Assembly (NCBI GenBank): GCA_004431415.1
Contig: QPMI01000046.1
Span: 62,001-126,000, forward strand
Reading direction: 5' to 3'
Length of the DNA stretch: 64,000 nt
Source: Cyanophora paradoxa CCMP329
Lineage: Eukaryota > Plantae > Glaucophyta
The stretch's first letter is position 1; every line of letters starts with the position of its first letter. Position numbers and translations under genes: made by a program. Shown piece after piece: positions 18,001 to 51,508 of this stretch. The notes under the pieces are model-generated. The model was not told the origin of the DNA. It did no database searches and was given only the letters and a program-made list of their open reading frames with translations.

Positions 18001-19330
18001 GCGCTCGGGTTGCTCGGGTTGCCGATGGGCGTCGAGGTGAGGGCGATGCCGGAGCTCGGGTCGCGCGGCAGGACGCTGGCAAGCGGCGACGAGGCCGGGC
18101 CCGCGTAGCCCTTCTCGTCGAACGGAATGACCTGCAGGGTCGATGGGCTGCCGTTGGTCGGCAGGTCGGAGACCGGGATCGATGTCTGGCTGCCAGGCAC
18201 GCTGCCGATGGGCTTCCCGTTCTGAAGAACGGTGTAGCTGTTGGGAGTGCCGTTCTGGGGCGGGCGCCACGAGAGGGTGGCGGAGCCGGGGCCGCTGCCG
18301 TTGAAGCTGCTGAGGGCGAGGTCCGAGGGCGCGAGCGGGCTCGCTGGCATTCCCTCGACGGCAGAGCCGGCAATGCCCGCGCCTGGGCCGATGAGCGGGT
18401 TGTAAGGGCCAGGAGCGCCCATCCCGGGATCGCCCGACGTGGGCAGCGACGGAGGGCCGACGTTGCCGAAGCGGTCGATGGGGAGGACCTGGAACACCTT
18501 GCCGCCGCGCGGCGCGTCGGCGGAGGTCGCGCTACCCGAAACAGTGCCCACGATCTCGCCATCGCTGACGATCCCGTAGCTGGCCGGGCTCCCGCTGGCA
18601 GGGCGGTTCCAGGAGAGCTTCCCGGAGCTGAACATGCCGGGGGCGCTGGTCAGCTGCAGGCCCGTCGACGCCATGGACGGCTGGCTGGCGTTCGGGCCCG
18701 CGCCGGAGCCGACGGAGTACGAAGTCAATGGAGCCTTGCCGCTCGGGGCGCCGATGACCTCGCCGCTGGGCGAGATGGGCGCCACGGAGAACGCCGCTTC
18801 CTCGCCGGGGTTATAGCCGGGGTTCCGGACCGTGTAGGTGTTCAGGCCGCTCGGCGTCGGGCTCGGGGGCTTGACCACGCCGACCTGCTGGCCGTCACGC
18901 AGAATCGCGTAGCCGCCGATGCCGCCCGCAGCGCCGGTGGCAGGCGTGTTCCAGGCGAGATGGCCGCTGGGGTTCGGGCCGGGGCCCATCGGCTGAGCCG
19001 TGAGCGCGATGCCACTGTTCGGGTCCTTGGGAAGGGCCGTCGTGAGGGGGTGCGACGGGGGGCCGGCGACGCCGTTCTCGTCGAATGGAACGAGCTGCAG
19101 CTTCGTGGGCTTGCCGTTGGTTGGAAGGCCGGAGAGCGGGTACTCCGTGCGGTTGCCGGGGGCGGTGCCGATGGGCTCGCCGTCGCGGAGGACGTTGTAG
19201 CCGGCGGGCTGGCCCGCCAGCGGCGGCGTCCAGGTGAGCTTGCCCGAGCCGGGGCCCTTCTCGCCGGCGCTCGTGAGGGAGAGGTTCGACGGGGCGAGCG
19301 GGCTCGGGGCCGGCGCCTCCAGCCCGGAGC
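1..19330 (-). repeat. Coding tandem array of at least 18 units (about 1060 or 1190 bp), each encoding three Ser/Gly/Pro-rich FN3-like modules
   Basis: Recurring motifs LSWKRPASGSPASYTVLKDGK...LQVVPFDSNGVAGPAS, LAWTTP...SFGVLQDG...FSVVPLS and LSWNRP...SYSVIGDG...YQVVPVAANGAVGPAS fit the FN3 pattern W-x-x-P...Y-x-V...V-x-A/P...G-x-x-S. Units are near-identical from 1 to ~12.9 kb and increasingly diverged towards 19.3 kb. Confidence 0.9.
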
Positions 19331-22300
19331 CCGGTAACCCTGCGCCCGACCCCGTCGGGTTGTAGGGCGTCTTCCCCAGGCCGCCGAGGTCCCGCGAGCG
19401 GACGCCGGCGCCCTCGCCGGTGCCCGTGCCCGTGCCAGTGCCCGTGTAGGGCTCGTACGGGGTCGTCGCCTTGCCCTTCGGGAAGATGCTGGGCACGCGG
19501 AGGGTGCCCTTCACGATCGCCGCGGTGAGGCCAGCGACGAGAAGACCGGCGGCGCCGATGCCGAACGCGAGCGGCAGGATGTGCGACATCTGCGACAGGA
19601 CCACGTTACAAATAAAATCAATCCTGTGAATACGAGCGCATGGGGCACCTGGTTGCTGTTGCCCTGGCCACGATCACCATCTTGCGGCGGGAGCTCGCTA
19701 ATGCCAGCGGCGAATGCCGGCTGGCCTGCCGAGAAGTAGTTCGGGATAATTTGGCCAAGGGTGAACTGCGCGATGATATTAGAGACAGTTTGCATTTCGA
19801 CATTGACGCAGGATGGGGCTTCAGACTTGCCGTGGTCTGCGCACAAAATGAATTAAATAAAAAACAGCGCGTCCGCATGTGCGAATGGCAGACGACGCAC
19901 CAAATGCGTGCAGAATCCACGAGCATACCAGATACCCTACGTTGAAGTGGAACGTGCTCATGAGAAGGCGTCTCATTTTGCATTCAATAAAAAATGTTGC
20001 ACATTACGCTGGAAGAGATCTCCGGCATTTGTCGCCATAGGGTCGGGGTTCTCCGCATCGCCGAGCTAAAGCGATCGCGATTAGGCATCGGATCTTCAAT
20101 CACTTGATAGAGGTGCCAACGGTCACGCACCCACATGTTGATCTTCGGCTTGTAACGCGTCTGGCACGGCTCCCAGCTACTGGAGGTCTCGTTCCAGAAG
20201 ATGAGGAACTGTTGCTCCGTTGGCATCGTTGTTTGAGTGATGGGGTACGGGATTTCGATGATGATCGGCTTGGAGTCCGCGAGGCCGTCAATGCGGAAGC
20301 CGAGCACCTGATCATGAGCGCGAAAATCTGTCAGCCGTCCGTCTGGAAGACACTCTGAACTGAAACGTTTGAAGTGCACCGAAATGTCGACGAAGCCGCC
20401 CGTGATCTTGACTGCACCCGCAACTGTGCCTCCAGAGGGACCCCTCCAAACGGGCGGGAAGGGCGAGACCTCCATGTTGAGAATGGAAACGCCGAATCTG
20501 GCTTCCAAGTAAGGCAGGGGCTGATGAGAACACTTGAGAAAAAGGAGAGGAGAGATTGGATTTAGATTCGGTAACATATCCGTAAGAAAGAAATATCTGA
20601 TACGGGTTATCGGCCGACTTGGCGAACCCGTCTTGGCCACCGTCCTTGGGTACAAAGTCGCGAACTTCGAAAGGCAGCTTGACCAGGGCGGGGTTCACGC
20701 CCTCTCCGCCGGCTTTAGTGGGGATGTCGTAGTAGACTCTGCCAGGAATTGCGATTGCGGGCGATCAAAAAATGCGCCGGGCGATCTCGAGCAAAAGAAA
20801 TGAAAAAAGCAATTGCAGACTGCACCTGATGTCAGTAAAGCAAACTGCGCGAAAAGCCAGATTGCAATTGTTATTTTATGCGCGATTGTTATGGAGGAAG
20901 CATAACGCACTTTTTCCGGCAGTCTATCGAGTCCAAGCATTGAGAGTAGTCAATGTCAGCCACGTTTACGGCAGAAGGAGAAGCAGCCATGCGATATCTC
21001 ACCACAGCTGCCGCTTCAGCAGCGGCATTACGCAGACCATCCTCACAACCGCGGCAGCTACGCAAGAGGGATTTTTAGGATTAGGAAGACACCAACTGCA
21101 GCTGCACAAAGCCGTACTTGGCGAGGGCGCCCTGGGGCGCCTTGATGAGGGTGTTGAGCAGGTTCGCGAGTGGGCTGCTTGACGACTCCGTCTGCCCGGT
21201 GAGGCCCGTGCCAGCGGTGCCGACCCAGTCCGGGCTCGCGATGGCCGCAGAGAGCTCTTCCGTGGTCTGATTGTGGGATTTAGCAACATCTCGCATTTAG
21301 ATTTCCAATTGCAAGGGTGATTTGAAAGCTAGGCGTTTGTATAATCAGATGATTGCGCTCCGCTTTCAGGAGGGGCACCTGCTCGAGGTAGACACTGAGG
21401 TCGAGCTCCAGGAAATCGCACGGGTCGAACGCCGGCTTGCAAGATGTGAGCTTTTGCAGCAGCGTCGAGTTGAGGAACCTGTAGCCAGTGAGCACAAAGC
21501 TACAGCGCCTGCGTTGCGCAGAGCTGGATGACAATGAGGCGCATGCGCACGAGCTCGAGACGGAGGCGAGTTTGGTGATGGCTGCCAGCGTGGCTGCCAG
21601 CTCCGGGTACGCGGTCGCGATGTCTCCGGTGGAGCTAGCGAGATTCTTGAGGCGATCAGCAGCGCTGGAGGCTGAGCACGCATCCGTGATCAGCTTATCC
21701 AAGCAAGGCGGCGGTCCTGCGTTCAGACATCAGGCACCGCGCGCGGTCGTCCCCGGCAGAACTCGTTTATAATTTGATACCTTTGCCGCGGAAGAACTCG
21801 CTCAGCGCGGCGATCGCGTCGCCCTCCAAGATCGTCTTCTCCTTCTCGGTGATCGTGCCCGCGGCGAAGCGCTCGCTGATCGAAGCCATGGTAGCGTCGT
21901 ACGTGGCGCACGCAACCGGAGGGTCGACGACCGTGATGGTGAGAGGGACGTCTGTTGTGCAAGATCGTCCACATGAGCGATAGACAAAGCATCGACTGAA
22001 GGTTCGGCACCGGAGCAGCCGCAGGCGTTGTTGGAGCAGATGGTCGCCGTGAGCTCGTGCGTGCCGACGGGGAAGACGTAGGCGGGGGTCATTACGTTGC
22101 TCTCCCCGGGCTTCACGAGGACCGCCTCCTTCAGCTGCGACAGGATCAGAGGATCGCCCGTTCCGCTTCGTAGACTTTCGCACCTTGAGCGAGTAGGAGA
22201 GCGGGAGCGCCGTCGCCGCATTGAAGGGCGGCTTCCAGTTCGAGCACGTGACGGTGAAGCTTGTGCTCATGAACGTACCCTGTGTTGGCGAGACAGTGCA

Positions 22301-25300
22301 TGTTCCCGGATCGACCGATGCAGGGGGACCGATGATTCGAATCGTGGCCTGATCGGAGACCGCGGGCAGAGTAGTTCCCGGATGGTTGGGGTCGGCGGCC
22401 GTCGCGGAGCAGCGCTGCAGAAAAGAAAGAAGAGCCCCTGTTAAAGACGATTTCGAGCAGTTTAATTGCCATTAAAAGTAAATCACTGACAATGACGTAT
22501 TCCTTATCTGCCGAAGAGAGTTGCGAAAAGGGTGCAAGGCGTCAGCAGCTCAAAGACAAGGTTCAAACAGCGACCGCAATCGTGGCTCACTGTACTCGAG
22601 GGCCGGGCGACTCTCCCGAGTGAAAATCAGGGAGTCGTCGACCTTTGACACAGCCTTGAAGTACCTGCGACATGTACGTGTAAAACTCGCGAACGCTCAT
22701 GCTCTTAAGATCACACTGAGGTGTCTTAACGGTGCCCGCAAAAAGCAACTAGGTCGGGCCTAGCTCCGACTGTACACAAGAATGCGCCAATTGCGATTGC
22801 GGGTTGCGCGCACGGGGAGAGGTCCGCCAGCACCGACTCGCCGTTCGGCGCGGACCAGGTCTGGACCGCGACGGTGGGGTAGGCGTCGTAGTTGGTGGCC
22901 GAGGACGTGCAGCGGGCCACGATGGTCTGGTTGACGCATACGCCGTCGGCGGCCCCAGGGGGCGGCGAGATCTCGACCTGGGTGAGTGCACAGCCCCGTC
23001 AGCTTGTTCGAAACAGCATCTATGCATTTTTTCTCTCCCGACGTATATATGCAATATTTAATACCGCACCTGGACCTTGACTTGCAGAGCGGGCACCGAG
23101 CCCGGGAGAGGGGAGGTAGTTGAGCCAGTAGGAGTTGGAGTGGGGACCCCTCCAGGCGTAACCCCTCCTCCTCCCGTATCCCCTCCGGGCGGTGGCGTAA
23201 CCCCTCCCGTATCCCCTCCGGGCGGTGGCGTAACCCCTCCTCCCGTATCCCCTCCGGGCGGTGGCGTAACCCCTCCCGTATCCCCTCCGGGTGGTGGTGT
23301 TGCCGCTGGCGTTGGTGTTGCCGGTAGGGCTCCTCCAGCAGGGCAGCTGACCACAAGAAAGTCCCTGCTGCTCTCGCGAAAACCGCCTACAGACATGTGC
23401 ATACGTAGTCATGTAAGAAAGCGACCGTCATTTGAGGGGTTTTAATTCGCAGTTCACCGCACCGAAACGATTTTTTGCACGGAAAAGCACGCGGTGCACA
23501 CGACCTGCTACGCAGTGTCTAGCCAGCCGAGTGGTAGTGACTGGGCCACCAAATGGCGCTGCAAGAGTGTTGAGGTTGAAGCTTGTCGCATCGCGGGAGA
23601 TATTTTTAATAATGTTGACGACGATCTCGTGATCGAGGGCGGCGTCCAAGTCCTTGTACTCCGGTTTCAGCGGATCTTTGGTGGTTGCCAGCGGCGTTTG
23701 TTTCAAATCTCGCAGCTGAGAGCAACGCTTAATGGCACGGTAGTGCATTTGAGTTGACTGACGCAAGCTAACCCTGACAATGAGCATGTCATAGCCGTGA
23801 GGCGTGTGGCGACCGTCGGTCGGATTCTCCCACTCAACAATGTAGTCGCTGCCGATGGGCTTCGGCTTCGGAGCTGCAAGCGAATGCATATGCATGGCTC
23901 ACATCAGAATGATTGACGCTCAGAGGTTTTTGCGAATGGCGTACCAGTCCAGCCTTCGAAGTCCGTCCACGCCGTCGCGTTGTTCTTGGAAAAGACGTAC
24001 GCGAATTGCACGCTGAAGCCATCTCTTGGGACGAGTGTCGCACCGTGCCGGTTTTTCCAGTCGAACCAGAGCTCAATCATGCTGATATCGTCCGCCTTGT
24101 CGCCCACATTCTGCTTTGTAGGGGGAGTTGCAATTGGGTCTACCATAACGTGATCCTTGTTGCGAGGGCTTCGGCCTGTCCCCGCCTTTGCAAGTGCCAG
24201 ACTGTGCTCCTCGCCGACAAGTCTGCAAGTATCCATGGGCGTACTCAAGCTTCGTCAAGAGTCTAGAATCTAGATCTAGAACGCACGCAATGTAGCAACG
24301 ATCTGCAAATAAAAGCGAGACTCAAGATTATATATCGAGGGCTACCAGAAAAGTTAGCTCACCAAGAATAAAGCCGCCAGCGCCCACGGCGGCAATGGTG
24401 TCGGTACCAGTCCCGCTAGGATGCTGAGATCCGGGCTGCCTCAAAATTTCGTTCTTGGTTGCTGTAGAGATTAGTGTGAGACCGTCGAATGTGCACGCTT
24501 TTCATTGCCATCGCGAGCAGTCATGATCAGCTGCAGCTCACCAAAATACTCTGCGTGCAAATCTCGTTAAAACATGATAAGTGGATGCCAATCAGTAAGT
24601 AGTGAAACGCACCCCCGTAGGTGTATGCTCCACCTCCCACGTATCCGGAGCTGTCCTCCGCCCACTTATTCACATCCCATTGCTGCCTATAAATACCGAT
24701 ACATCACTATTCTGCCATCGCACACAAGGACGGCAGATCTAGAGTATACCTCGAAGGACCCCAGTGCACGTAACTCTTGGAAAGACGATCGAGCCCCGCA
24801 GTATCCAGTGCTTTGGCGGCTGGCTCGTCTAATCCTGCCAGCGTCCCTGTAACGCTGCATGAGCAATTGAAGGGAATGACCGTTTGAAAACCGCTCGCCA
24901 AGTTGCTGATCGTTGTCGGGGTCGAGTCCACGCAAGTAATACTTGATGAATCTCTGGTACTGGAAGTCGTCGTCGCGCCCTACAAAATCGTGCTGGATGG
25001 TGACATCGATGTAGATCTGGAAGTGCTCATCGGTCTCGTGGAAGAAGTACCTGCACACGAGTCAGACGGCCATCATTTCACACTTGCACAGTGACACTCA
25101 AGCTAACGTTGTGGTGACGTTGATTCCTTCTCTCTTGCCGGCCGCATGCACGACCGTTATCCCATCGGGCTCCTTGATGGTTTTGATAATCTTCCCGGAC
25201 ATAGTACGCCTAGAGTCACTGGGCAGATTATCCGATTCCTGCAGACGCCGAACGGAGTCATGAACAAACCACGCCAATATCGATATATCGCCATTTGAAA

Positions 25301-28300
25301 TCGCACCATTAACGATCCGTAGCCAGTATGCTTGAGTTGTTCAAACCCAAATTGCACGGTTGTCATTCCGAGGCCCCAGCCTTCAACCTGATATAGACGG
25401 TCGAATCACTCTATAGAAAAAAATCTAGTCCATAGACGTTGTTGAACCGCAATGACGCACAGGGAATCCTTGGGTCTGCGGACAGCACGTGCACGTTTCA
25501 GACCAGGCGGATAAATGCAGTCTAAACAACCACGAATACGCACAATCAAGTCCTGGCGATGTGCGATTGAAGAATTCACGAACGGCTGTTAGTGAGCGCA
25601 CATTTGCAGAGAGATAGAGATCTAGAGATCGCGCGCACTCCGCAGTAGGGCATTTGTCTGAGTCGAATGACATCGAATCAGCTTAGATAATCGCGATCGT
25701 GAAAACAATGCGGGCTCACCGGCCTGTCTTGCAACCTGTGCCCTTCGAACAATCAGCCTCGTTGGCAATGTAGTCGTCGGACTCTGCTCGCAGGAGGATT
25801 GTGAGCCCAGAACTACATAGTGAGGCGCTAATAGAAGAAAGCGGAGAGGCAGCTGCAGCGTTGCGTACGAGGCCATGTGTTCCACTGACGAGCGCACACG
25901 TGCACGCGCATGGTTTCATGTGAATAAGGCGTTCGAATAGCTCAGGGCGCCGGCGGGTGAGACTTACCCCATCTCGATCCACGTCGACAAACAAGCCGAA
26001 CCCCGTGTATCGGTTCTGACTGTACCCGAAGGGCAGAGTTGGGCTGACGTTTGGGGCGTATTGCGCGCTGCCAATTGAGCCATCATATCCGTGAATCGCT
26101 GCCATTAAGTGCTTTCCGAAGACAAAGTAATCATTTAGATCTTGCGCGAAGCTGGTCGCTGCTCGCGCTGTTTGGATTCCAGCGTAGGTTGTTTTTACAA
26201 CGGTGCTGCGAATGCCTACGGAAGGCCCAACGAGATCCCAGCTGTGAAACGAGTTCGGCCAGGGGGGGGTACAGGGGGGGTACAGGGGGGGAGGGGCGGC
26301 CCGCGGGGGCCAGGGGCGCTGGGCCCTCGCGCCCCGGATCACGATGCCGCCGGCCGGGGCGGCGGCGGCGGGCGGCGGCGGCGCCGAGATCTTCCCCCTG
26401 CGCGGCGGGCCCGCGACGCTCCTCGGCGCCCTCGCGCTCGCCCTCAACCCGGGGCTCGGCGTCGGCGCCCTCTTCGGCATCCGCATGGACCCGTCGCAGT
26501 ACGCCGAGGTCGAGGTCGAGCCCGGCGCCATCCCGCTCGAGGCGTGCATCGCGGCCACCTCGGGCCTCGACGAGGTGGCCCCCATCTGCGTCTCCGACGA
26601 CGGGCGCTACCTGGTGGTCTGCTCGGACTGCGGCGACGTCGTGACCGTCTGCCGCGCGGAGGTGGTCGGGGACGTGGATATGTGGGCGGCGGCGCCGCCG
26701 CGCGTCGTGTACCGCCGCGTGGGGACCCTCAAGTTCTACATCGGCAACGAGGTCTTCGCCGGCGCCGCCGACGCGTTCCGCTCCTTCCGGTGCTGGGTCG
26801 TCGAGGAGCGCCGCGAGATCTACTTCGCCTGGAACAGGGAGAACGTGCGGATGTACAGGCTCCCGGGGCTGCTTGCGGCCGGTTAGGTAGTGGTCATGTA
26901 TCAATCAAAAACCACGCCGCGGTCGCGCCGGTAGCCCCCCGCTTTTCCGCTCCCACCGCCGCTGCTTGCGGGCCGCGGCGGCCCAGGCGATCGCCCCGGA
27001 GCCGAGCGCGAGGGCGACCATGGGGACCCAGGGGAGGGCCCCGCCCCCGGCGCGGAGGGCCCGCAGGTAGGTCGAGACCGGCGGCGGCCAGGCACTGGAG
27101 GAGGATGCGCTCGGGCGCCGAGTCGGCGTCGGAGGCGGAGGCGGAGGCGGAGCTCATGGGGGGGGGGGGGCGCGAGGTGCGACGTGAGATGTAGTAGGGG
27201 GAAAAATATCTCCTCCTCGATGAAAACGATGGCAGTTCCGCTCCCGACCCAGTTAGAGGGGGGGCTCCGGGCGCTCCTCGCCGCGCCCCCCCAAGAGTAC
27301 ACCCGGGCCTTCCAGTCCTTCATTCAGCTGCCTGGGTTCGCGGAGAACCAAGCCCTGATCCTGCGCCGCCTTGACAGGGAGGTCCGCAGCGCCAGAAACG
27401 ATGCCAAGAGATACGCAACAGAAGTCATCATCGGCCTGTTGAAGTCCGAAGAATACCGCAATCGGGCCGTAGTCGAGCGCACCGTCGAAGAGTTCATTAA
27501 GTCTGTAGCTTTCGGCGGGCCGCCCGAGCTGCTTCGGATTGCAGAGGGCCAGGATCCACTCGCGGGGTATGCGAGGATCACATTTGGAAGGCCCGGCTTT
27601 CTGCACGACAACAACTTCCACGGGGCGTTAGTGGCAAGTGCCGTGACATTCGCCCGCGTGCACCGGGTGCGCACCGACATCACATGGTCGCCGTGGGCAG
27701 TCGGTTGAATCCAGCTGACGAGCGGCTTATTATTTTTTTTCAATGCAGTAGTAACAGCAGAGACTACTATGGGGGCGATCTTTGGGACGCCCGGTGGCGA
27801 GCTGTTGGGCCTACTACACGAAAGGATACGCCCAAGGGAGAATGCAAGTCAGCTCCAACGGAAGTTTTTGAAGCCGGTTGAGCAGGCGGACCGGTACGAA
27901 CGGGGAGAACTCGTGCAAGACGATGATGCCCCCGATCGAATTGCAGCTTTCTGGAGAGGGTACGAGAAGGCTACCAACAGGCCCGTGCATGGGCGCATTG
28001 CCCTTCTAGCGGATAATCTCAATGCGGGTTTCGGCCTCCTTCAGGGGTTTGCAGACGCCGGGGACCAGGCATCGACCTGGACCGTCTTTAGAAATGGTGA
28101 ATTTGTCGAGGCGGTGTTCTTCGACCACCCGACGGCAGTTCCAACACCCCCCGCGGGGTACATGGACTGGCTGTGGGCGAAATCTGGGCACCGGCGCCGG
28201 CGCCGCAGCGCCTATTTTGACGACGACGACGACGACGGTGACGACCAGTCGAGAGAGCTGTTATTCAATATCCTGATCGGGAACATCGACGCGCTTGGGC

Positions 28301-31300
28301 GCTTGTTCCCAGTCGGCTCCGTTTCCGGCTTGCCCGAGATGTTGGGACGAGAAACCAACGAGGCCCTGGCCTTCATCGCCTGGATCCACCAGCCTGGTAA
28401 TGGGATTCGGCGTTGAGTGACCTGGCTTTCCTCAGCTGGAATGAACATTGACGGGGCGCCTTTTGTCGACCGGCGGAACTACGCCCGGTCGCGGCGGCCC
28501 CCGCCGCCGATAATGGCATTGGCCGGGTGTCTCTTCGTGTTAACTAGCGACGCAGCAGAGCTAGCTAGCAGGCTAGTAGCAGCGCTCGAGCTCAGGGCTA
28601 GCTGATCGCACGGGCTCCGAATCCAGGTCCCATAGGGCCCTAAAGGCTATAGCTAGCATGCCGGCCCGTCGCCGCACGCTGTACGTAGCATGCCTGGCTC
28701 TAGAGCCTCTTGCTAGCCCCGCCGCCCCCGGTACTGGCCGTCACCAAGGTGCTCGCAGCCCCCTTGCCAACAACGACTGTCACAGGTGGCAAATTGCCTG
28801 CCTCTGCATACTGGGAGGGCGTCAGCGGGGCGGGGCGGGGCGTCGGCGGGGCGGGGGCGGGGCGGGGCGGGGCGGGGGCGGGGCGGGCTAGAGCTAGCGG
28901 GGGCGGGGCGGGGCGGGCTAGAGCTAGCGGGGGCGGGCGGGGCGGGGCGTCGGCGGGGCGGGGCGGGGCGGGGCGGGCGGGGGCGGGGCGGGCTAGAGCT
29001 AGCGGGGCGGGGCGGGGCGGGCTAGAGCTAGCGGGGCGGGGCGGGGCGGGCTAGAGCTAGCGGGGGCGGGGCAGGGCGGGGCGAGACTATAGCTAGCGGG
29101 GGCGGGGCGGGGCGGGCTAGAGCTAGCGGGGGCGGGGCGGGCGGGGCGAGACTATAGCTAGCGGGGCGGGGCGGGCGGGGCGAGACTATAGCTAGCGGGG
29201 CGGGCGGGGCGGGGCGAGACTATAGCTAGCGGGGGCGGGGCGGGGCGGGCTAGAGCTAGCGGGGCGGGGCGGGCGAGACTATAGCTAGCGGGGGCGGGGC
29301 GGGGCGGGCTAGAGCTAGCGGGGGCGGGGCGGGGCGAGACTATAGCTAGCGGGGGCGGGGCGGGGCGGGCTAGAGCTAGCGGGGGCGGGGCGGGGCGAGA
29401 CTATAGCTAGCGGGGGCGGGGCGGGGCGGGCTAGAGCTAGCGGGGGCGGGGCGGGGCGAGACTATAGCTAGCGGGGGCGGGGCGGGGCGAGACTATAGCT
29501 AGCGGGGGCGGGGCGGGGCGGGGCGAGACTATAGCTAGCGGGGGCGGGGCGGGGCGGGCTAGAGCTAGCGGGGCGGGGCGGGGCGGGGCGCACTTCAGGC
29601 AGCAGGTTCCAGTAGCGAGTGGCGACCGAGCAGAAGTTGACGAGATCATCGAGGTTTAATAACTTGACAATGCGCAGGACGGCATCATCCGGCAACTGTG
29701 GCGCGTGAGAAGAAGAGATACTGTGCGCAAAGAAGAACGCACATCATCCATACACGGCGCATGCTGTGACCGCGAGAGGCGAGGGGTCAGAGAGGCAGGC
29801 AAGCGCGCGCCGCATGCCGCAAGCTGCTTCCGCACCATCTCGCCGGCCTCCGCCTGCGGCACGGCCGCACCGCCGGCGGCAGAACCGCTCTGAGGCCGGG
29901 AGCATCAGGGGAGGGAGAAGCGCGCGCAGAACGATGTTTGCGCACCCTCTGCTGCTCGTTCGTGTGCATCGCGGCCGCCGGCTCGCGCCCGGGCTGCAGC
30001 GGCGAACCGTCGTCATCGCCGGGAGGCTTCCTGGCCTGCACACGCTTCGAGCGCCTCGGCTCGAAGCCGGTATCCTCCTCCTTCTCCTCCCAGCGCCGCC
30101 GCTTCTCCGGCGGCATGATGCTGGTGCACGCGAGGGGTACAGGGATGCGCGCGCATCGACGTACCCCCGGCGACCGACTGACTCGCCGGCGGTGCAGCGA
30201 GCGCCCCCGATCTGGACAGCGGCCCGCGGTGCGAACGATGGCGAGTGCTTCCGTGCGCCAAACGTGCGCGCTGCAGATGACGAAACGGCGACGGAGCCCG
30301 AGCCGAGACGACGGCAGCACCGCCGCCATCGACTTGTTCACGGTGCGCGGCTGCCGATAGATAACCACGCGCCGAGGCCTCAGCCGGTGCCCCGCAGCCC
30401 CTGCCGCGCGACATCTTCTTCCGCATCGTGGCATTCTGTGCGAGCCCGCTCTACACGCTCTTCTGTGTGCTGGCCAGGGCGTGCAGAACGTTCCGAGATG
30501 CCGTGAGCGCTCAGCCAGCGGCGCCCGGGGCCCGCCCGCGCGCGCCGCGCGCGCTCATGCGACGACGCAGGCTCGGGCCTTCAGGGCGCCCCGCGTGATC
30601 TTCCGCGTCGAGTGCATGAAGTACCACCTGCCGTTCTCCGGCGATGTCGACATCCGCGTCGGCACCTTCCGCCAGGTGGGCGCGCCGCGCCCGCAGTGCG
30701 ACCCAGCTAGCTCATGGGGGCGCACAGGCCGTCGATGTTCTCCTCGGCCGCGTGCACATGTCGGCCGCCAGGTTTAAGAAGAAGAGGAGGACCGCGATGA
30801 AGCTCATCGTCTTCAAGCGCGACGTGGTCGAAGGCGACCCGGATCCACGCCGCTACGAGGCGAGAGGCCCCGCCCGACCCGCCCCCGCCAAGCCCGCCCC
30901 GCCCTGAGCGCCCGGCGGGCGCCAGGCTGTCAGCGCATACCTGCTCGAGGGCACCTTCACGGAGGTGACGGAGGTGGTCTTTTCCCTCGACCGCGTGGAG
31001 GGCGTCCTCGCCCACCTGCCCCGGTTCCTCCTCGCGAGGCGGCCCGGGTCGATCGAGATCCGCTTGACGCGCGAGGGCTTCACCGGCCGCGGCAGGCCCG
31101 CGGCCTTCGCCCTCGTTGAGTACCTCATTCGAGCCGCCGCCGCAAGCCGGGGGCCTGCGGCGCTCAACTTCAGCGTCAGCACGTGGGACTACACGACCGG
31201 CAGCCTCCCGCCGTTCATCGCCGCCGCGCAGGAGGACGACTACTTCATCGTGAACACCGGCCTCACCGGGCACAGCATCCCGTCCAACGCCATCAACAGG

Positions 31301-34300
31301 GTGCGCTCGGGCGGGCGGGCCCCGCGGGCGGGCCGCTAAGCTCGCTGCCGCAGCTCGGTTTCAGCATCGACGGCCCTGCGCGCCCACCGGCCCCGCCGCC
31401 TCCTCCTCCTCGACTGCGCCTCGCCCGTCGCGCCGCCCGCCCTTGCCGCCCTCGGCGCCAAGCACGTGTACTCCCCCCCCTCCGACGACTCCTCGTAGCC
31501 CGGCGCCCGCCCCCCGTTCCCCTCCCCCCGCAGCTTGGACCGAAGCTTGAGCCGACTTTCGATCTCACAGCACGACGAAGGGGTAGGGGAGGGGGGAGAG
31601 GCTGAGGGGCACCGAGACCTCCCGGCACTTGTACAGGATGAGCTGGCGGGGCGGGCGAGCGGCCATCGCAGCGAAGAGCTCGAACAGCGGCTCGGCGAGG
31701 CGCCCCATGTGCGCCCTGCGGCGGCGCGGGCGTGTGAGCAGCGGGCGGGCGGGCGGGCGGGCGGGCGGGCGGCGCAGCGCGGCTCGCCCGGCGACATAGA
31801 CGATGAGGGGGTGCGGGCACTCGAGGACGATGCGGCTGGCCGTGCGGATGATCAGGGGGGCTTCGGGCGCTGCAGTACGTGGCGCCCTGGGGGGCCACCC
31901 CGACGCAGCCCACCAGGGGCGTCTCCTTCCCCACGACGCACCAGCCCGGCTCGCACAGGCCCGTCTTGGTGCACTCCCAGCGCCTCACCCCCGTGGCGTT
32001 GGCGCACTGGATCTTCATCTCTCCCGGCTTGCAGCCGTTGAGGCAGAAGTCCCTCCTCGGCGTGCAGCGCGTCTCGTCGGCGCACCCCGTGATGGCGTAC
32101 TCGTCGGGGAGGCACCCGTTGTTGCAGCGGCGCAGGGGGCCCGCGCACGTGGTCTCGTCCGTGCACCCGCTGATGGGCCACTTCCCCGGCTCGCAGCGGT
32201 TGCCGCACAGCTTGTCGGCGCTGCAGACGGTCTCGTCCACGCACCCCTCGATCGGGGCCGTCCCCGGCTCGCACCCGCTGAAACACTCGCCCTTCCTGCT
32301 GCAGCGCGTCCCGTCGAGGCAGTCCTTCATCTCCACCTCGCCGGGCAGGCACTCGTTCTCGCACACCCCCGGCACCTCCGAGCACACCGTCCCGTCGAGG
32401 CAGCCGTCGATGGGGAAGAGGTGCGGGGGGCACCCGTCGAACCGCGAGCACTGGGTCGGGCAGCGCGGGTCCGCCATGTTGGGCGCGGCGGCGGGGCACC
32501 CGTTGCGGCAGATGTTCGGGTCGGCGCCGGCCGTCACGCACTCGCCGGCGGGGCTCGCCGGCGTCCGGCAGTTGTTGCGGACCGGGGCCGACGCGGGGCA
32601 CCCGTTGAGGCACACGTCGAGCCGGGGGCCTTCCGGCACGCACTCGCCGCACTGGTTCTTGATCGGGCGGTCGGTGGGGCAGCCGTTCCGGCACCCCCCC
32701 AGGGCGGTGGAGCCCGTGGGGACGCACTCGCCGCGGGGGTTGGCCGCCGTGACGCACCCGTTCCGCACGAAGTCGCGCGGGCAGCCCGTCGCCGCGCACG
32801 TCCCCTGCTCGAAGGAGCCCGCGGGGACGCACTCCTCGCAGTCGTCCTGCTCCTCCCCGGGGGGGCACGGCGTGCCGGACGCCTCTACCGACGCCGAGCT
32901 TGCGAAGAAGGACGCAACTCGCATTCTGAACAAGGCGATGTGGACGTCGCCAGACTCGGTCACCGTATCCACTGATACGACCTGGTTTGCTACCCTATAA
33001 TTCGGCATCAGCACCTTGTCGTGATCGGGCGGCAAGGAGTAGATCTCGAGGCGGATGCGGGCGAGCCGCCCTGCCGAGACGTCTGCAGGGGCGATGGGCC
33101 AGCCCTTGTAGTAATTCGAATTCGACGTCTCGTTGTATTTGACGAGCACGCTATTCTGCACGGTGGAGGTCTGCCCGCCACGGGAGTGAGTCAGGCTCCC
33201 CCCCCAGAGTGGAAACGGCTGGGAATCTTGAGTCGTCTTCAGAGACTCGAACCCCGCCCAATTCCAAGCATCGTTGATCGAGACCAGCATGCGGATCGCG
33301 CCGAGGGCGTCCGACACGTCCCTGTCGAGCATGCACCAGATGGAGACACGAACGACACGGTACTCGCTGAAGTAGTTGTGCGGGATAAGGAGGCTGCTCG
33401 CGTTGGGGGCCAGGTCACCCGCAGCAAGGAGGCGCTCGCCGACGGAGGGGCCGACGACGGGGCCCCGGACGATAAGACCCCCGTCGAGGAAGAGGTCGCC
33501 GTTGTTGGAGAAAGCGGCCTTGCCCCCCGCAAACGTCAGGGCAGTCGACGAGGGGATCCGCAGCCGCGCGTGGTGGCCGAACACGCCGCCTCCCACAAGC
33601 ACATTGAGGTCGGGCGAGTAGGCGGCGGCGCTGAAGTTGATTGGAGCCTCCATCTCGGTCCAGCTGATACCATCCGTGGGGCGCCAGTCCTCGGGGTCGA
33701 GCGCGAAGGAGTAGACGTAGATCGGGCGCTTGGGCACGGTGGTGTGGTGCTCCGACGCCCGGGGAGGGACCGCAATCACCCTGCAGGCCGCCCCCGCGGA
33801 CCCAGCGCTCCGGGACGACGGGTGGCCGGTCTCATACGCGGACGTCCGGGGCGGCCGCCTCGTGCGCATCGAGCTCGAGATCTACACTGTGCCCCCTTCG
33901 CACGCAGACACCGCCCTGGTTGGCATCCTTGTCGATACCCACAGCGTTGGACCCGACGAGGTCCCCTGTCACACCACCGGCCAGCTGGCCCTGTCCGCCT
34001 CTGCCACCCTCCTCCACGGGCTCCGCATCCAACCCTCGGCTGGGCGCAGGTTCCTTTCAGGCTCGTACTGCGTTTTGGGGCCATTGCCCGCCTGTTCCCG
34101 GGGACGGCGGGGGGCGTGCCGGACGCTTCAACTGATGCCGAGCTCGCGAGGAAGGATGCAACGCGGATCATGAACAAGGCGATGTGGACGTCGGCAAGCA
34201 GGTCGGGGCGGCTGCAGCCGGTTATTCAGCACGAATGGGGGACATGGATGAGGGCGAAATCAACACGCACATTCTCGGGAATGACATGGGCCGGTCCACC

Positions 34301-37300
34301 GCTTAATTGCTACTTTGCAGTGACGGCGAGGGGCGATGATGTTGAAGACGAATACTCAATCGCATCTGACATGTTCGTCCTGGGCAGCCGTGATGGAGGG
34401 CATTCGTGGGAGCCCACGGTTGAAGCCCGGCAAGGATGGGATGACAGCGATTTTAACCCAGAAGGATTCAGATGCATCGTTGCATCGGGAGATGGCCATG
34501 TCTTCGCCTTGAGTCATCCCACGAATTCCTACTGGGGATCCCAGCACCATGTCAAAATCATCGAGACTGTTGATGGGTCCACATGGTCGGTTGTCTCAAA
34601 CGTGACATGCTCGAGCAATGACGGTAATTATTATGAATCTTCCTATGCCATTTACAGGGTTCTCATCTATGTGCCCGAGCTGAAGGCAACTTTCTACTTT
34701 GACGACTACAATGCGTACAGGCGGTCTGATGGGGGGGAATGGGAGGGCGGGTCCCTCGTGGATGGTGTCGACGTAATTCGCTGGTGGGGTGCAACATCCA
34801 TCTTCTACTCCCCAGTGCTAAAGAAGCTCGTCGCCCTGTGTTCGTGGTTCGTACGCACGGAAAACCGCGGCCGGCTTGTGACGGGGCCGCCGGCTGGCAG
34901 GACTCGCCGGGGGCGGCGGCGGCCTGGGCGGAGTGCCCCCAGTGCCCCCGCGGCGTCTACAACTGCTGCCCCCCGCGCCCGCCCCAGCGCCTCGTCATCG
35001 AGCCGTGAGGGCGGGGCCTCTACCGCCGGGCCGCCGCGGCGGCGGCCGCCGCCGGGCGCTTCGGCGCCCCCCTCCGGCTCGCCGCCCGCTTGGCCCTCTT
35101 CGCCTGCTCCAGCTCCCGCACGCCCTCTAGTGTGTACTCGCTCAACCGGGCCCTCTGAAGAATCCTTTCCATAGCCTGCGTCGCCGCCCGCTGGGCCCTG
35201 AGCGCGGACCACTCGGGGTGCAGGCTGCGGACTCGCAGGTACTGCGCCAGGTACAGGTGCTGCAGGGCCGACTCGCTGAGGGCGCGGGGCCGCCGCGCGG
35301 GGGGGCGCTGGTAGGTCATGGCTGTTTATTTGCTGCGAGAAAAAACGGCGCCCTGCTCTAGTAAATTATCAGGACCAGGCCGTCGCCTCCGGTCCGCACG
35401 TTGTAAACCGTGGACCCCTTCCCGCACGGGGAGACGTAGTCCGGGTCTGTGGCGTTGCCGGGGGTGTCATATGAGGCGGCGGATGTCGTACCACCGGTCA
35501 CGACCGCGCTGCCGTAGTAGCTGGAGCCCCCGCCGCCGCCGTAGTAACCGCCACCGCCGCCGTAGTAGCCGCCGCCGCCACCGCCGCCGTCTGCCCCCGC
35601 GATGTCCCCTCCCGTGTACTTCGAGCCGGCTGTGCCGTTTGCCCCGGCGTCACCGCCTGCGGCCTGGGTGCCGCCGCCGCCCCCGGTTTTGGACATAATT
35701 ACTTGGATACCCGTCAGGCCGCCGCCGCCGCCGCCTCTCTGGAAGTAACCCCCGCATGCCCCACCGCCCGCCGTGATGATGTCGTCGGTGCCTCCCTGGA
35801 CCCGGATGGCGGACCGCCCGCCCCCGCTCCCGACGTTCGTCTGGGACGCCGTGCACCGCCCGCCCCCGCCGTAGGTCGCGAGGTGCGCGTTCGGGTTGGG
35901 CCTGCCGCCCTGCCCCACGATGATCACGTAGGTCGCCCCCGGCGTTATCAGCGGCTTCCACTGCTCAACGTCGCGCTGTCGCCGCTGCTCCTCCTCCTGC
36001 TGATGCTCCTGCTGCTGCATCGCGACGACGACGACGATGCGCGCGCGAGTCAGTTCGTTGTTGCGCTACCCCCCCCCACTCCCCCCCCCCTCCTGCATCA
36101 GTGTCGTCGTCAGCCGGCCAACCGGCAGCCGCACCGGGCGCAGACGCCGTGGTGTATGAGACATCCGACGAAGCCGGGCTACAGGATCGTCTTCAGCAGC
36201 ATCAGCAGCGGCGGCAGCATGCCGAGCGAAGTCGACGCTGAGGTGGTCAGGTTGGGACTGGTGCGCGCGATTCATCTGCCTGAATCCGCCATCCGCCTGA
36301 TGATGCACGCGCGCCGGCCCGCAGCCCCGTGCGGGGCGCCGACGGCAGCGTCGGGGGCGCGGCCGGGCGCGGCCCGGTCCGGATCCAGCGCCGCCTCGGG
36401 GCGGGTGCGACGACGGCCGCCGGGGAGGGTCGATCGGCGGTGATGGGGCCGTCGGCCGGCGGGCGCCACGGGCACCGGCGGCGGGGCGGGGCGGCGGGCG
36501 GGGCCGGGGCGGGCGGGGCGGGCGGCGATGACGGTCGTGATGTCGGCGGCGGGGAGGTGGGCGCCGGGGCGCCGGGTGCCGGGGGGCGGGGGCCGGGGCG
36601 GGCGGGACGGGGGCCGAGGGGCGGGCGGCGGGGACGGGCGGGGACGGGCGGGCGGGGGCCGGGCGGACGGGACGGGGGCCGAGGGGCGGGCGGCGGGGAC
36701 GGGGCGGGGACGGGCGGGCGGGGCCGGGGCGGACGGGACGGGGGCCGAGGGGCGGGCGGCGGGACGGGCGGGGGCGGGGGACGGGGCCGGGGCGGCGGGC
36801 GCCGGCTGCTGGGTTAGCGCCGGGCCGGCCGCGGGCCGGTGCCGGAGCGGCGGCCGGGCGGGCGCCGGGGCGGGAGCCGGGTCGAGGGCGGGGGTGGGGC
36901 CGGGGGCGCCGGGGTCCGGACCGACCTTGAGGCGGAGTTTCAAGTGGTTGGAGGCGGGGTCGGCGGCGGCAGGCGGGCCGGCGGGAGGCGACGGAGAGCG
37001 CGGGCGCTTTGCCGGGGGCGGCGCCGACAAGTTGAGGTTCCTGAAGATTTCCTCACGAAGGCGGCCCCGGCACGCTGTGCAGGAGGGGCTGCTGCCCCCG
37101 TCGAACCGGGAGCGCATCATCGCGCACCCCGTGACGTATTGGTCGATCATGTCCAGCATCGACTTGAACTGACCGGAGCAGTGCGCGTGCACGTGCTTTC
37201 CGCAGCGCACCCCCTTGCACCTGAGCATGAGGAGCACCAAGGAGGCGATGATGAACTGCGCCTCCCTCCGGTACCTGCTGGTGAACGTGGGCTCGCGGAT

Positions 37301-39123
37301 CTCCAACATCGCCCTGGAGCATGCGGCGGCCGAGGCGGCCGCGGGGCCGCAGGCGGCGGCCCCGTGGTGGGCGGCGGTCGCGGCGGCCCAGGCGCAGGGG
37401 GTCGCGGCGGGCGTGCCCCGCCTGCGGCGTGCACTGGGTCCAGGCGGCGTCCGACTCGTGCCTCGCCTGCCGCCTCGGCCGCGATGCGGCCCCGCGCTTC
37501 GGCGACCCGGGGCGGCACGCCGAGGAGGCTGCTGCCGTCGGGGATGCCCTCGCGGCCTCCGCCTGGCGCCCCGTCTCCCCCGACATCGTCTTTGCGGCGC
37601 GCGGCTCCTGTGCCCCCGGGAAAGGCGCCCTCTACCTCCCCGATTTCGTCTTCTCCCTCCCGCACGCTATCTTCTGCCTCGACATCCTCACCAACTGCCA
37701 CCGCGACGAGCCCCCCAGCTTCCGCGAGATGCGCGAGGACACCTACCAGAGCCTCACCACAATGGAGCGCCCCGTCGTCTTCCTGTACACCAACTTCGGC
37801 TCCTACTTGACCGCCGGCGCCCGCCTGCGACGTCAGGAGGACCCTCCCGGCACACGCTCTCTGCCATTTCGACCCCCCCCTATGCACTCGCCCGCCGCGC
37901 CGCTGAGAGGAAGCCTCAGCATCAATTACCCCCACATCTTCGTTCGTCAGCTGGAGGAGTCGGGCCTCCTCGCGGCCCTGCGCGCCCGCCCGCCCCGCCG
38001 CATCGTCATCGGAAGCTTCAAATCCTCCGCCGCGGCCGCGGCCGCCGCCTTCCCCAGCCTCCTCGCTCTCGGTGCCGAGGTTCAGCTAGCCGAGGTTGAG
38101 CTAGATTAGAGCCTTCTCCATTCATTCACGGCACATAAACAGCCCCTGTAAAGAAGGGATACCAGCGGGCGAGGACCCGGGCCCACCACGCGTGGGTCTC
38201 CGCCTCGGGCTCCTCCACGAGCGGCATGATGAATGCGGCAAGGGCGGGGGGCGGCGCAGGGTAGATCCCGTCCACGAGCGGAGCGCTGGGGGCCGGCCGA
38301 GTCGGAGAGCCTCTTCGGCGCCGTGCGGGCCAGCAGGCAGCAGTAGTTTAATGCCGTGTGATATCAAAACCAATCGCGTCACCTGCACCTCCCACTTTTT
38401 CCCAGCCAATATTATCCATGACCGCAACGGCCGCTGGGCGGGGCGTTTAAGTCGACCTGCGCCTACGGCACTTGCGGCTCTGGACGGCGGCCTTCTCCAT
38501 AATCGCTTCCTCGGCCGGCTCGAGTGCGCTCATCAGCTCCCTCTCGCGCCGCTCCTCCTTGATCTGGACGTGGGTCCTGCGCCGCTTCTTCTCGGGCGTG
38601 GGGGCGCGGGGGTCCTGGTCCTCGCACTCGGGGCGGGCGTTCGGGCGGTCGCAGTAGTAGCTGACGACGACGGGCCCGGCGCCGGCACTGCGGCGTTTGG
38701 CCTGGAGTTTGGCGGCGTCCATGCGGGCGAGGAGGCGGAGGGGAGTCAGGACGCGGGCGGGGTTGGGGCGGCAGCGGCCGCGGCGGCCGCGGCGACGGCG
38801 GCGGCCTCGAAGGCCGGCCCTGGCGCGGCGGCCCCGGCAGCCCCGGCAGCCCCGGCAGCCCGGCAGCTCCGGCCCCAGCCCCGGCCCGGCAGCAGTTGTG
38901 GGTGGCCCGATCCTGCAGCTGTGGCAGCAGGCCGCGGCGCCCGCTTCCACAACCATTGAGATCCTGCGACAAGCAGCCGTCGTTGGGCGGGCACGACAGC
39001 GTCCGTCAGCGAGGTCCAGCGTGGCTTGGCGGCGAGCCTGGCCGTCTCGATGTACATCGCCATGTCGGAGTCCTACCAGCTGCTGCTTGCGGGCGGGGCC
39101 ACGCCGCAGCTGGAGGAGCAGGA

Positions 39124-44924: not shown

Positions 44925-45260
44925 CCTCCTAGGCCGCCCCTACCCCTAGGCCGACCCCTACCCTAGGCCGCCCCTATAGCTACCCTAGACCGCCCCTACG
45001 TCGCCCCCTACCCCTAGGCCGCCCCCTACCCCTAGGCCGCCCCCTAGGCCGCCCCCTACCGGTAGGGGTAGGGGGCGGCCTAGGGGTAGGGTAGGGGGCG
45101 GCCTAGGGGTAGCTATAGGGGCCGGCCTAGGGGGCGGCCTAGGGGTAGGGGTCGGCCTAGGGGTAGGGGGCGACCTAGGGGGCGGCCTAGGGGTTATTAA
45201 AGGGGCCGACCTAGGGGTAGGCCTACCCCTAGGCCGCCCCCTACCCTTAGGCCTACCCCA
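44925..45260. repeat. Imperfect palindrome built from CCTAGGCCGCCCCTACC units, centred near 45060
   Basis: C-rich units to the left and G-rich reverse complements to the right of cccctaccggtagggg. Confidence 0.9.
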
Positions 45261-48200
45261 ACGCGGAGGTGGACACGGAGTCCCGCGCCTCTCGCGCCCG
45301 CACTGCGCCCCGCGCCAAGACCGACTACGTGCCCACTGAGGAAGCCGAGATCGTCGAATTCGAAGCAGCTAGCTCTCTCTCACTGTTCTATGGTTTGTGC
45401 GCTCTAGCACCCCGCGCGACGTTCGCAGAGTCCTTCTGGCAACTAAGCATCATCTTCGACACCCGCGGAACGGTTTCGGGTCGCCGCTGACGTCGCCTTC
45501 GCTCCGAGCCGACGAACCCGCGAGGTCCGAGCCGATTCGCTGCGCCGTGCTCTCACAGGCTCTCCGCAGCATTTCACGGGGAGAACATACCTTCTCATAC
45601 ATTCGCGCACTGCGCCCTCGCCCGTCGCCTTCGCGCGGACCAGCTGCAGATCCTGTCAACGCAACCGCGACGTTTCGGTTTCCGGCGCCGGCGCGTATTC
45701 CGGCCTCACCCGTCGCCCTGATTCTTTCGGCAGTGCTTCGGAAGTCCTTACTGACGTTCTGAGTGCCATTAAGCTCGCCGGCGCGAGCCGTGTTCCTGAC
45801 CTGCTCATTCGCAAAATCCGTACCGGGATCTGTCCCGCGCAATACGTACCGGGATTTGTTCCGCGATTCTCATACCGGGATCAGTCCCGCGACGCTCCTG
45901 CGCAGACGCTTACGCTCATCCCATTCGCGCGCAAGCCTCGTACAGGGAACCGTCCCGCGCAACGCTTTCCCCTGCGCAGTTGCACGAATCTGACCCCCTA
46001 ACCACTCGCCCTCGTCCCGCCTGACTCCCTCACGGCCTCTTGCCGTCCCGCCCTGCGCCACGCCGCGCAGTCCGAGACGATTCGGTCTACCCTTTACGAC
46101 ATCTGGTGTCTTGTACCCCCTTCCGCGCCCAGCGCCCACCCCCCCTCGGCATTATCTGCCTTTCGCCCCCTGTCTGCCCCGCTCCACCAGAGCTCCTCCA
46201 GCTCCAGCTCGGGCTACACGAGCAGCTCCAGCAGCTCTTCGTCCTCCTCCTCAAGCCGCGGTGAGCGCGAGCGCCGCCGTAAACGACGGGATCGCAGAGA
46301 CAAGCGCCACGGCAAGAGGTCGAGCAAGAAGTCCCGCACCAGCCGCAGGGTCGCCGCCGCCCCGGGCGCCGCCGCCCCCGACGCCGCCGCCAACGCCGCC
46401 GCCAACGCCAACGTCCGTGCTGACGTCGACGCCAACGCCGACGCTGGCGCCCCACCCTCTTCTGCAAGGCCGGCTCCTCCCGTCCGCGACCGGCAACCTC
46501 ACCCAGCGGCGATCCCAGCCTACTTCAACGCCTCGCAGGACCCGCTGCCCTTTCCCGCGCTTCAGTACGCTTATGACGCTGACGGTCGCCTCGGGATTTT
46601 AGTTCCGCACGAAGAGAACGAAGGGGAGATCGGCGACCCCGTGCTGGCCTACGCAGCCGCGGCCTTCGGGATACCCCGCTCCGTCCTCCGTCCCGCGCCG
46701 ACGATGACATCCGCGCCATCAACCAGCGAGCTGGGCCGTTTGGCGTCGTTCTGGCAGCGGGGATGGACAATGTCTACGCCCAGTGCCTCGCGATCGACGT
46801 CATGACAGCCTGCAGCTGCAACGAGCGTCTCGAGGGCCTGGAGAACGACTTCAACGCCCTTCGAGCTGCCACCCCTCCCGCCCCCCTATTTGCTCCGCCG
46901 CCGCCTCTTTATAATTAGATCCGCCCGCTGAGCTAAGCCTGGTGCTTTCTAGCGCCCGGCCACTGCACGCCCACTCGCTCTAGTATCTTAAGAGGGCGTG
47001 TACAACAGCTGATCGACGACGATGCTGATCATGACCTTCGAATTCGCTCGCAGGCGAGCACGACGTCGCCCCCCAAGGCCAAGAAGCCCGTCCCCAAGAA
47101 GCCCAAGAAGTGAACGCGTCGTAGTCGGAGTCGGAGTCGGAGTCGGAGTTTTACCTTCGCACCTTTTCAATTTTACCTGCGCCTTCGCGCGCGTGCACTT
47201 TTCACCTTTTCACCTTTCATTTAACCTGTACAGCAGAGCTAGCAGAGCTGCTAGCGCTGTTTCAAGCAGATGTCACAGTATACAGTACCAGAGCAGTACT
47301 ATTTGGACAGTATCCTGATATCAACATGACATTATATATTATTGCAAGGGGGGAAAGAAGACCGAAGGTCTTCCCCCCTTGCTTCCCGTTCCCTCGCTTC
47401 AGCCAAAAGTTTTCTATGAGGCCGTTTTCGAGGTCCAGTTTGCAACGAAAATGTGCCGTTATTCGCGATCTGATTGGCTCGGTGGACCGGTCAGCTTTCG
47501 AGCTCGCGAGAGCTCTCTCGAACTCGCGAGAAGTGGTCTTCGAATTCCTTCCGATCCGCGGTTCTGCATGCCATGATGGAACCAGTTCTCCCTATATATA
47601 TAGCTAGCTGTCTCCTCTAGATTTCGGCTTCCTCGCAGTGCGTCGCGTACGCCTTGGGAACCAGTTCTCCCTAGCTGTCTCCTCTAGATTTCGGCTTCGT
47701 CGCAGAGCGTCGCGTACGCCTTGCTCTTCGTTGCGCGGTTCTGCATACAATCACAGTGCGTGTGTACTTCCTAGCTGTCTCCTCTAGATTTCCGCTTCGA
47801 ATTCCTTGCAGTGCGCCGCGTACGCCGCACGGTATCCGTGACGCCTGAACTACTTTTGACTGCATCAAGTTTGCACCGCAGCACTGCGTACCGAGCACGC
47901 GCCGCTGCGCGCAGCCGAGCACGCTGCCCGGCACTCGTGCTTGATAGAGCTTGCACCGCACTGCGGCAAAACCGCTTGCACCGCTGCCTATAGCTAGCTG
48001 CCGCAGTGCGCCGCTGATCGCAGCCGAGGACGCCAGGCCGTCCAGACTGTCATCTCTTGCTGCGCCGAATACGTCTGCGAAATCGAGTTTATACCGCAGT
48101 TTTGCGTGCGCCGCTGCCCGCAGCCGAGCACGTTGGCCGCGGCCCGGCCCGGCGCTTTTGTTGCGCTCGCGCGCGGTTGCCACTCCGCTGCACGGCTTCT

Positions 48201-51342: not shown

Positions 51343-51508
51343 ATGACATTATCCTGGCATCTTTCTGACATTTTGGGATAATGTCGAGATAATGTCCAGA
51401 TAATGGAAGTTGCAAACATTTTAATGTCAGGATTATGTCAGGGCTGACAATAGTTATAGTGTCAGAATGATGCCCGGATAATGTCAGTTCTACCCCATTC
51501 TACTAGTG
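51343..51508 (+). mobile_element. CACTA/EnSpm-like right end with subterminal GATAATGTC/GACATTATC repeats
   Basis: Ends TTCTACTAGTG (reverse complement CACTAGTAGAA), with several subterminal motif copies in both orientations; no partner left end found. Confidence 0.5.

Follow-up and report, generated by a model that had tools for sequence, protein, structure and literature searches.

By which route does giant-virus DNA enter the chromosomes of protists, by accident or by viral integration? The accessible text of two studies leaves this question open (PMC12210455, PMC5294986), the second in terms of active versus accidental integration, and it is raised again by a patch of about 4.1 kb in Cyanophora paradoxa CCMP329, an alga of the glaucophytes. 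The patch occupies positions 31863 to ~35950 of a stretch of 64,000 nucleotides (GenBank assembly GCA_004431415.1, contig QPMI01000046.1, positions 62,001 to 126,000 of the forward strand), hereafter called the window, which consists of GC-rich eukaryotic DNA with short introns. We find that the patch is a mosaic of coding fragments smaller than genes, one of which is of the type of nucleocytoplasmic large DNA viruses (NCLDV), and we consider it on balance probable that it arose as a one-off mosaic insertion of NCLDV-type viral DNA by host end joining. Sub-gene units in a young mosaic would directly record the accidental, end-joining route, and the same genome contains a likely donor copy of the capsid stretch.

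The patch is made up of seven intronless coding blocks placed end to end, on strands -, +, -, -, + and +, followed by a compact block of mixed strands (Table 1), with block sizes of 80-1,100 bp, i.e. below gene size. Every block holds a single stop-free frame, marked by a G+C content at third codon positions (GC3, 0.62-1.00) that exceeds that of the first and second positions. A frame-finding model (six-frame codon Viterbi, trained on eight open reading frames [ORFs] outside the patch) passes from one frame to another near joints noted earlier, at 31866, ~33775 and ~34880; this model is blind to joints that keep phase, and it called 34030-34646 non-coding, thereby under-calling the low-GC Asp-box piece. 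Chance open frames are common in the GC-rich DNA of this region (114 ORFs of at least 50 aa within 10 kb), so that open frames by themselves are weak evidence, and the case for the blocks is carried by codon bias and paralogy. The preliminary description of this DNA had listed about eight abutting intronless pieces in mixed orientation; their places and strands stand, and their number is corrected to seven. Its statement that the pieces lack starts and stops of their own applies to six blocks but not to the compact block, which contains a complete gene of 99 aa and two genes with stops.

Short-read contigs from all three DNA runs analysed cover all eight joints (31779-36066 or beyond) without a single differing letter. 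In each of the three runs the patch lies on an unbranched contig of 4.3-4.9 kb, which speaks against both a mis-join and a second, near-identical copy; the depths of this contig (56, 90 and 105) lie near those of neighbouring contigs (39-52, 58-90 and 61-84) and are not to be equated with copy number. An assembly chimera was rejected on the strength of these unbranched contigs, the three runs possibly being the source data of the sequence itself. The sub-gene-scale mosaic is real. The contigs connect both flanks to the patch, which places it within the host chromosome between spliced genes and speaks against contamination. The ratio of observed to expected CpG is about 1, alike in the patch and its flanks. 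Three putative-RNA runs from one study and a run of 2012 gave no long contig on the patch, which is evidence neither way.

The viral signal comes from the 79-bp piece, whose 27 residues match the Pfam family Capsid_NCLDV (PF04451; E = 5.2e-5, under the whole-protein cut-off) and the PDB entry 8h2i MCPv1 (E = 3.6e-4), and share 48-68% identity with the capsid ORFs of all 33 viral loci that were chosen by a capsid motif. We classify the piece as NCLDV-type capsid, its shortness permitting neither assignment to a family nor the exclusion of small NCLDV relatives, and through it the patch carries an NCLDV hallmark sequence. A strict capsid motif had no match in metagenomes, and a GC-rich capsid motif had two distant ones. 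A separate contig of 3,240 bp from run X19 (depth 102) matches 33674-33731 with four differences (93%), which points to a likely second copy of this capsid gene elsewhere in the organism, a candidate donor or a sister endogenous virus. The fragments had been called giant-virus-like, with homology expected to stop at the junctions: both hold for the capsid piece, whose homology ends at both of its limits, but the other pieces have no virus-specific relative.

Four further blocks are related to one another. The 84-bp piece is a direct, 86% identical copy of 34113-34196, where the Asp-box piece starts; 12 of the 84 bases differ, with nine synonymous against two non-synonymous codon differences in the plus-strand frame; this paralogy was absent from the preliminary description. 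An alignment of the C-terminal piece of paralogue 2 with the DGISWT piece, at the end of the latter, scores 110, compared with a maximum of 53 in 1000 shuffles. Three xDGxxW motifs occur in the Asp-box piece, for which the Atlas gives BNR/Asp-box (score 0.88; ten of ten top matches in one clan), a lead only. We assign the four blocks to two paralogues of one Asp-box gene family. They are hence not independent draws, and the enrichment for virion-surface genes suggested earlier rests on few draws and is given up; a role of this family in the virion is a guess.

Two copies of a conserved module with different downstream parts, and inverted 6-mers that flank 33679-34855, are also what might be expected if the patch were an invertible cassette of the shufflon kind, exchanging the ends of a fibre gene by way of the 84-bp repeats. 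However, the 84-bp copies are direct rather than inverted and their differences are mostly synonymous, none of the cassettes has a stop at its end, no recombinase occurs among 127 ORFs at 19.6-55 kb (at least 70 aa, composition-filtered; spliced genes may be missed), and no joint of alternative orientation is among those listed from the three DNA runs. Such a cassette is extremely improbable, and by the features tested, direct copies and no recombinase found, the patch is not a shufflon.

How the pieces were joined is best seen at two places. Where the capsid piece meets the DGISWT piece, its last five bases (33674-33678) overlap the start of the latter. As the X19 match ends at 33674, the capsid donor and the Asp-box donor would have five bases in common at this joint, and the capsid fragment is fused into an unrelated gene via a likely 5-bp microhomology; of the six inner joints, this is the one at which microhomology, a check proposed earlier, could be scored. 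Position 33674 is also where a capsid reading with the motif Pro-Thr-Gly, which we take to be conserved among capsids, would leave the Asp-box gene, the Gly having been part of the capsid search pattern. The second place is marked by a 6-mer that occurs in the same codon phase at the end of the Asp-box piece (34856-34861, +) and at the start of the DGISWT piece (33673-33678, -), a degree of in-frame sharing met in 2.7% of random in-frame 18 × 18 windows. Reading from the former into the latter completes a blade resembling the preceding one, a result that 32 of the 6,506 alternative continuations taken from the patch equal. The DGISWT piece is thus likely the direct continuation of the Asp-box piece at 34086-34861, the two being consecutive halves of one broken gene that became attached to new partners, 1.2 kb apart and on opposite strands. 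The fusion of the capsid to an unrelated gene and the gene halves on opposite strands support non-colinear joining of virus-type DNA, as had been proposed; an infecting virus as donor, as opposed to an endogenous copy already resident, is not supported, given the second capsid copy among the contigs. The same 5-mer occurs at three of the eight joints, but a common joint motif was rejected, as about 63% of random window pairs share at least five bases. A perfect 6-bp inverted repeat with a 1-base loop (32864-32876) lies exactly on the joint of the Cys-rich and 84-bp pieces, as might be seen in fold-back or templated joins.

The broken Asp-box gene also bears on a different origin, in which inversions, deletions or template switches during replication scrambled, in place, a viral insert that had originally been colinear. 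The 6-mer is inverted at both ends of the interval between the halves, so that one inversion would restore the gene; in addition, the pieces of both Asp-box paralogues sit together, the compact block of 1.1 kb remains colinear, and chimeric, duplicated and degraded viral regions are known in Acanthamoeba (PMC12210455, accessible text). Undoing this inversion, however, leaves five chimeric joints within 4 kb, the 79-bp capsid and 84-bp paralogue scraps each require large flanking deletions, and serial decay must have left 4,011 coding bases without a stop or frameshift. We regard scrambling in place as the main, though rather unlikely, alternative. There are no stops in these 4,011 bases, and for neutral change of 0.5%, 2% and 5% the simulated chance of remaining stop-free is 0.53, 0.10 and 0.003, respectively (substitutions only, 400 runs per level), so that one recent event fits better than slow decay. 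The patch is likely young, or else under selection, of which it bears no other sign.

In the mosaic insertion that we favour, short DNA pieces of an NCLDV-type virus, either newly infecting or already endogenous in this genome, would have been present in the nucleus, would have been concatenated by host end-joining repair and, once, sealed into a chromosome break. The cargo comprises two Asp-box paralogues, the capsid scrap, the Cys-rich gene and the colinear compact block of 1.1 kb, and all of these pieces may come from one viral donor, mostly from one neighbourhood containing the two paralogous Asp-box genes. The joints would have used 0-6 bp of microhomology (5 bp at the one scorable joint), and the insertion would be recent, functionless and placed so as to split one host gene. 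At each of the two outer joints Pro-Leu-Ile is read, with no difference in codon phase, from an 8-mer with one mismatch that is matched by 5.5% of random pairs, so that the patch may have split a single gene, the left flank representing its 3' part and the right flank possibly its 5' part; this is suggestive only. The flanks as intron-bearing members of a local gene family speak in favour of insertion between host genes. The "repair filler" of the preliminary description is the best reading, and the patch is most likely a functionless scar.

Several points weigh against this reading. The capsid fragment is the only one of the seven blocks that we can call viral, by 27 residues alone; a cellular origin is possible for the Cys-rich, Gly-rich and Asp-box pieces, and the spread of GC3 across pieces allows for more than one donor. 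The one inner joint scored against a donor was scored from the match coordinates of one contig of one run, and the aligner end may slip by a base or two. The 6-mer and blade tests were devised after the motif was noticed, and rearrangement in place, by a single inversion between the two 6-mers, accounts for that joint just as well. At the outer joints a target-site duplication was rejected, since 19% of random pairs score equally (5.5% in the in-frame version), the right flank does not resemble the host family (p = 0.43), and no empty site (~31860 joined to ~35950) was found among the joints listed from the DNA runs (15 of 22).

If the mosaic had a function, the host might deliberately cut and store viral DNA as a template for antiviral small RNAs. 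Homologues of Dicer, Argonaute and RdRP are present in C. paradoxa, as are numerous exonic small RNAs (RNA interference genes are reported with them in the accessible text of PMC3700990), and this alga methylates virus-derived genes, the accessible text of 10.1101/2025.04.15.648976 describing methylated, silent endogenous giant viruses in this species. Mixed orientation would yield double-stranded RNA only for complementary pieces, and the complementary-strand pieces of the patch form one distant pair (73% over 59 bp). There is no repeat, leader or joint motif beyond chance, no enclosing element and no second copy of the cargo was seen, and the pieces resemble one neighbourhood at one age rather than successive infections. 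The anatomy gives no reason to assume an archive, and we regard one as improbable, and the wider idea, that the lineage packs giant-virus scraps into chromosomal mosaics that feed RNA interference and thus give an early-branching alga a heritable, sequence-specific memory, as marginally more improbable still.

The joints could also have made a new functional chimeric gene, either the minus-strand frame of 862 aa that is annotated as one gene or the Gly-rich fusion of 220 aa. The capsid, DGISWT and Cys-rich pieces do lie in a common frame, which crosses the 84-bp piece in antisense, and the public gene model P0001 (31293-33881, -, 732 aa), which combines antisense DNA, the capsid scrap, the DGISWT and Cys-rich pieces and an unspliced host intron, uses this frame. 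Yet three of the six same-strand joints are in frame where two are expected by chance, the minus-strand frame starts in the antisense of another piece, DNA as GC-rich as this readily stays open, as the count of chance ORFs shows, and the only database match is the gene model itself (EukProt tig00000180_g13630.t1). A functional chimeric gene is very improbable; what the patch does show is how chimeric "orphan proteins" such as P0001 result when gene finders are applied to scars of this kind.

The remaining blocks and the flanks are listed with the others in Table 1. Scans for homologues of the pieces were seeded with patterns and are sensitive to close relatives only. Apart from the capsid scrap, no piece matched viral loci L001-L034 (low-complexity filter on) or L035-L036 in these scans. 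The DGISWT piece matched only its own gene model among 6,952 candidates (proteins of 425-2000 aa) and had no relative in viral contigs, the Atlas or phages. For the Asp-box piece no sequence relative was found in proteins of 446-2000 aa, viral contigs, phages, the PDB or prokaryote genomes, and nothing among 1.84 billion representatives, in a search of lowered sensitivity because only the last 254 aa of the 633-aa query frame are real; an alignment of the C-terminal pair had no relative in viral contigs or prokaryote genomes. For the Cys-rich piece, Pfam gave only beta-defensin, under the cut-off, and viral contigs and the PDB gave no relative. In the compact block, the 99-aa gene has no relative in Pfam, PHROG or viral contigs, and none was found for gene X. 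The Gly-rich piece matches Pfam PF12810 (E = 3.2e-9, over the cut-off) and has one distant relative in the AT-rich viral contig L001 (49% over 57 aa); its domain also occurs in three PHROGs of unknown function and is not diagnostic of viral origin. Two NCBIfam matches were rejected as noise (E = 0.19-0.29; 10-11 bits, the cut-offs being 198 and 720), and single-sequence AlphaFold models of patch pieces were unusable (pLDDT 30 and 38).

Table 1. Blocks of the mosaic patch and its immediate flanks (positions in the window)
Feature	Position	Strand	Remarks
Left flank, 3' part of spliced host-family gene, truncated by the patch	31565-31862	-	intron ~31715-31786
Cys-rich repeat gene fragment, 336 aa	31863-32868	-	no start or stop; GC3 0.99
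84-bp copy A, conserved N-terminal module of Asp-box gene family, assigned to paralogue 2	32869-32952	+	86% match to 34113-34196
DGISWT piece, last propeller blades and C-terminal domain assigned to paralogue 1, ~242 aa	32950-33678	-	C-terminus cut
NCLDV-type double jelly-roll major capsid protein fragment, 27 aa	33674-33752 (79 bp)	-	Pfam, PDB, viral loci
C-terminal domain assigned to paralogue 2	33757-~34085 (right end approximate)	+	aligns to end of DGISWT piece
Asp-box piece, N-terminal module copy B and Asp-box (BNR-like) propeller blades assigned to paralogue 1	~34086-34861 (left end approximate)	+	GC3 0.62
Compact block, colinear, ~1.1 kb, compact AT-spaced genes	34877-~35950	mixed	
Gene X, 3' end of Cys-containing gene with own stop	34877-35008	+	GC3 0.98; ~15 bases of filler on left
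Complete orphan gene, 99 aa	35020-35319	-	AT-rich upstream spacer
3' part of gene with glycine-rich domain and own stop	35358-35950	-	Pfam ALK_LTK_GRD
Right flank, Gln/Glu-rich start, in frame with Gly-rich piece	35946-36020	-	gives 220-aa chimeric ORF

The left flank belongs to a local family of spliced orphan genes with a common C-terminal motif, located at 30199-31552 (+), 31565-31862 (-) and 37285-38106 (+). Its last exon resembles the C-terminus of the neighbour at 37285-38106 (score 49, reached by none of 3000 shuffles), which in turn matches the last exon of the gene at 30199-31552 over 38 bp of DNA (87%), and the six spliced exons of the latter are covered by putative-RNA contigs. No intact homologue of the left-flank gene was found among 1,822 candidates, and part of 37414-37806 has another copy (~88%) among the DNA contigs. 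The preliminary description had placed the patch inside an element, which we cannot uphold: self-comparison gave no terminal repeats bracketing the region, and none of the 127 ORFs at 19.6-55 kb matches a transposase, integrase or recombinase family. No further NCLDV hallmark family occurs among these ORFs, whose families are REJ, F-box, Gly-rich and C2H2 zinc-finger only, RING having come from a separate Pfam search.

Several other features were observed in the window. Three intronless orphan genes at 26344-28416 (+), of 180, 162 and 215 aa (GC3 0.98, 0.74 and 0.69), have AT-rich spacers, a virus-like appearance and no Pfam match, with G-run repeats upstream at ~26270-26300, and are possibly a second, colinear virus-like insert. 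Tandem GGGGC runs alternate with two short palindromic units at 28820-29590, and a palindromic array of CCTAGG-based units lies at 44990-45295 (90-bp arms, 84% complementary). A stretch of lower GC contains two dispersed pairs of direct repeats, 47338-47501 / 52623-52799 (85%) and 51223-51346 / 54049-54178 (91%); the first pair opens with a hairpin, and both are possibly ends of non-autonomous mobile elements. A long spliced repeat gene occupies 12600-19360 (-), with a period of ~1,065 bp and repeats 70-85% alike, and a REJ domain is located at 21770-22471.

Among known systems, giant endogenous viral elements (GEVEs) and scattered NCLDV insertions (PMC12210455, PMC5294986, 10.1101/2025.04.15.648976, each in its accessible text) resemble the patch in presenting an NCLDV hallmark among intronless orphans between spliced host genes. 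GEVEs, however, are described there as runs of whole genes of up to hundreds of kb, whereas the patch consists of units of 80-1,100 bp with a lone 27-residue hallmark; with one complete gene in 4.1 kb and one hallmark fragment, it is not a GEVE by the features tested. The insertions in Acanthamoeba are partial, duplicated and chimeric, and the word "microhomology" does not occur in the accessible text of that study (PMC12210455). Polinton-like viruses and endogenous virophages (PMC10120064, accessible text) likewise bring compact intronless virus-type genes into protist genomes, but the capsid of the patch is of NCLDV type, and terminal inverted repeats, integrase, polymerase and ATPase are missing. 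As no terminal repeats or mobilising enzyme were found, the patch is, by the features tested, not a Polinton-like virus, virophage or transposon cargo. The same source, which does not name Cyanophora in its accessible text, cautions that viral genes seen in fragments are in many cases artefacts of assembly, whereas the joints of the patch are spanned by unbranched short-read contigs.

Mosquito piRNA (PIWI-interacting RNA) clusters collect short viral pieces at one locus, but the patch has neither their retrotransposon context nor their uniform antisense orientation. In the limited literature collection that we searched, no case of a microhomology-joined mosaic of viral DNA in algae was found. 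The closest likeness is to the mosaic nuclear insertions of mitochondrial and plastid DNA in plants (numts and nupts, "numins"), which in the accessible text of PMC6215612 span a few kb, combine several short donor fragments in mixed orientation and, at the same size and make-up, show blunt or short-microhomology joints attributed to end joining. The patch differs from these in that its donor is likely a large DNA virus instead of an organelle, and in that a single joint has been scored. It exhibits one feature of complex end-joining insertions, namely several non-adjacent donor fragments in mixed orientation. The patch combines the known complex insertions with endogenous giant-virus DNA, and works like a mosaic numt.

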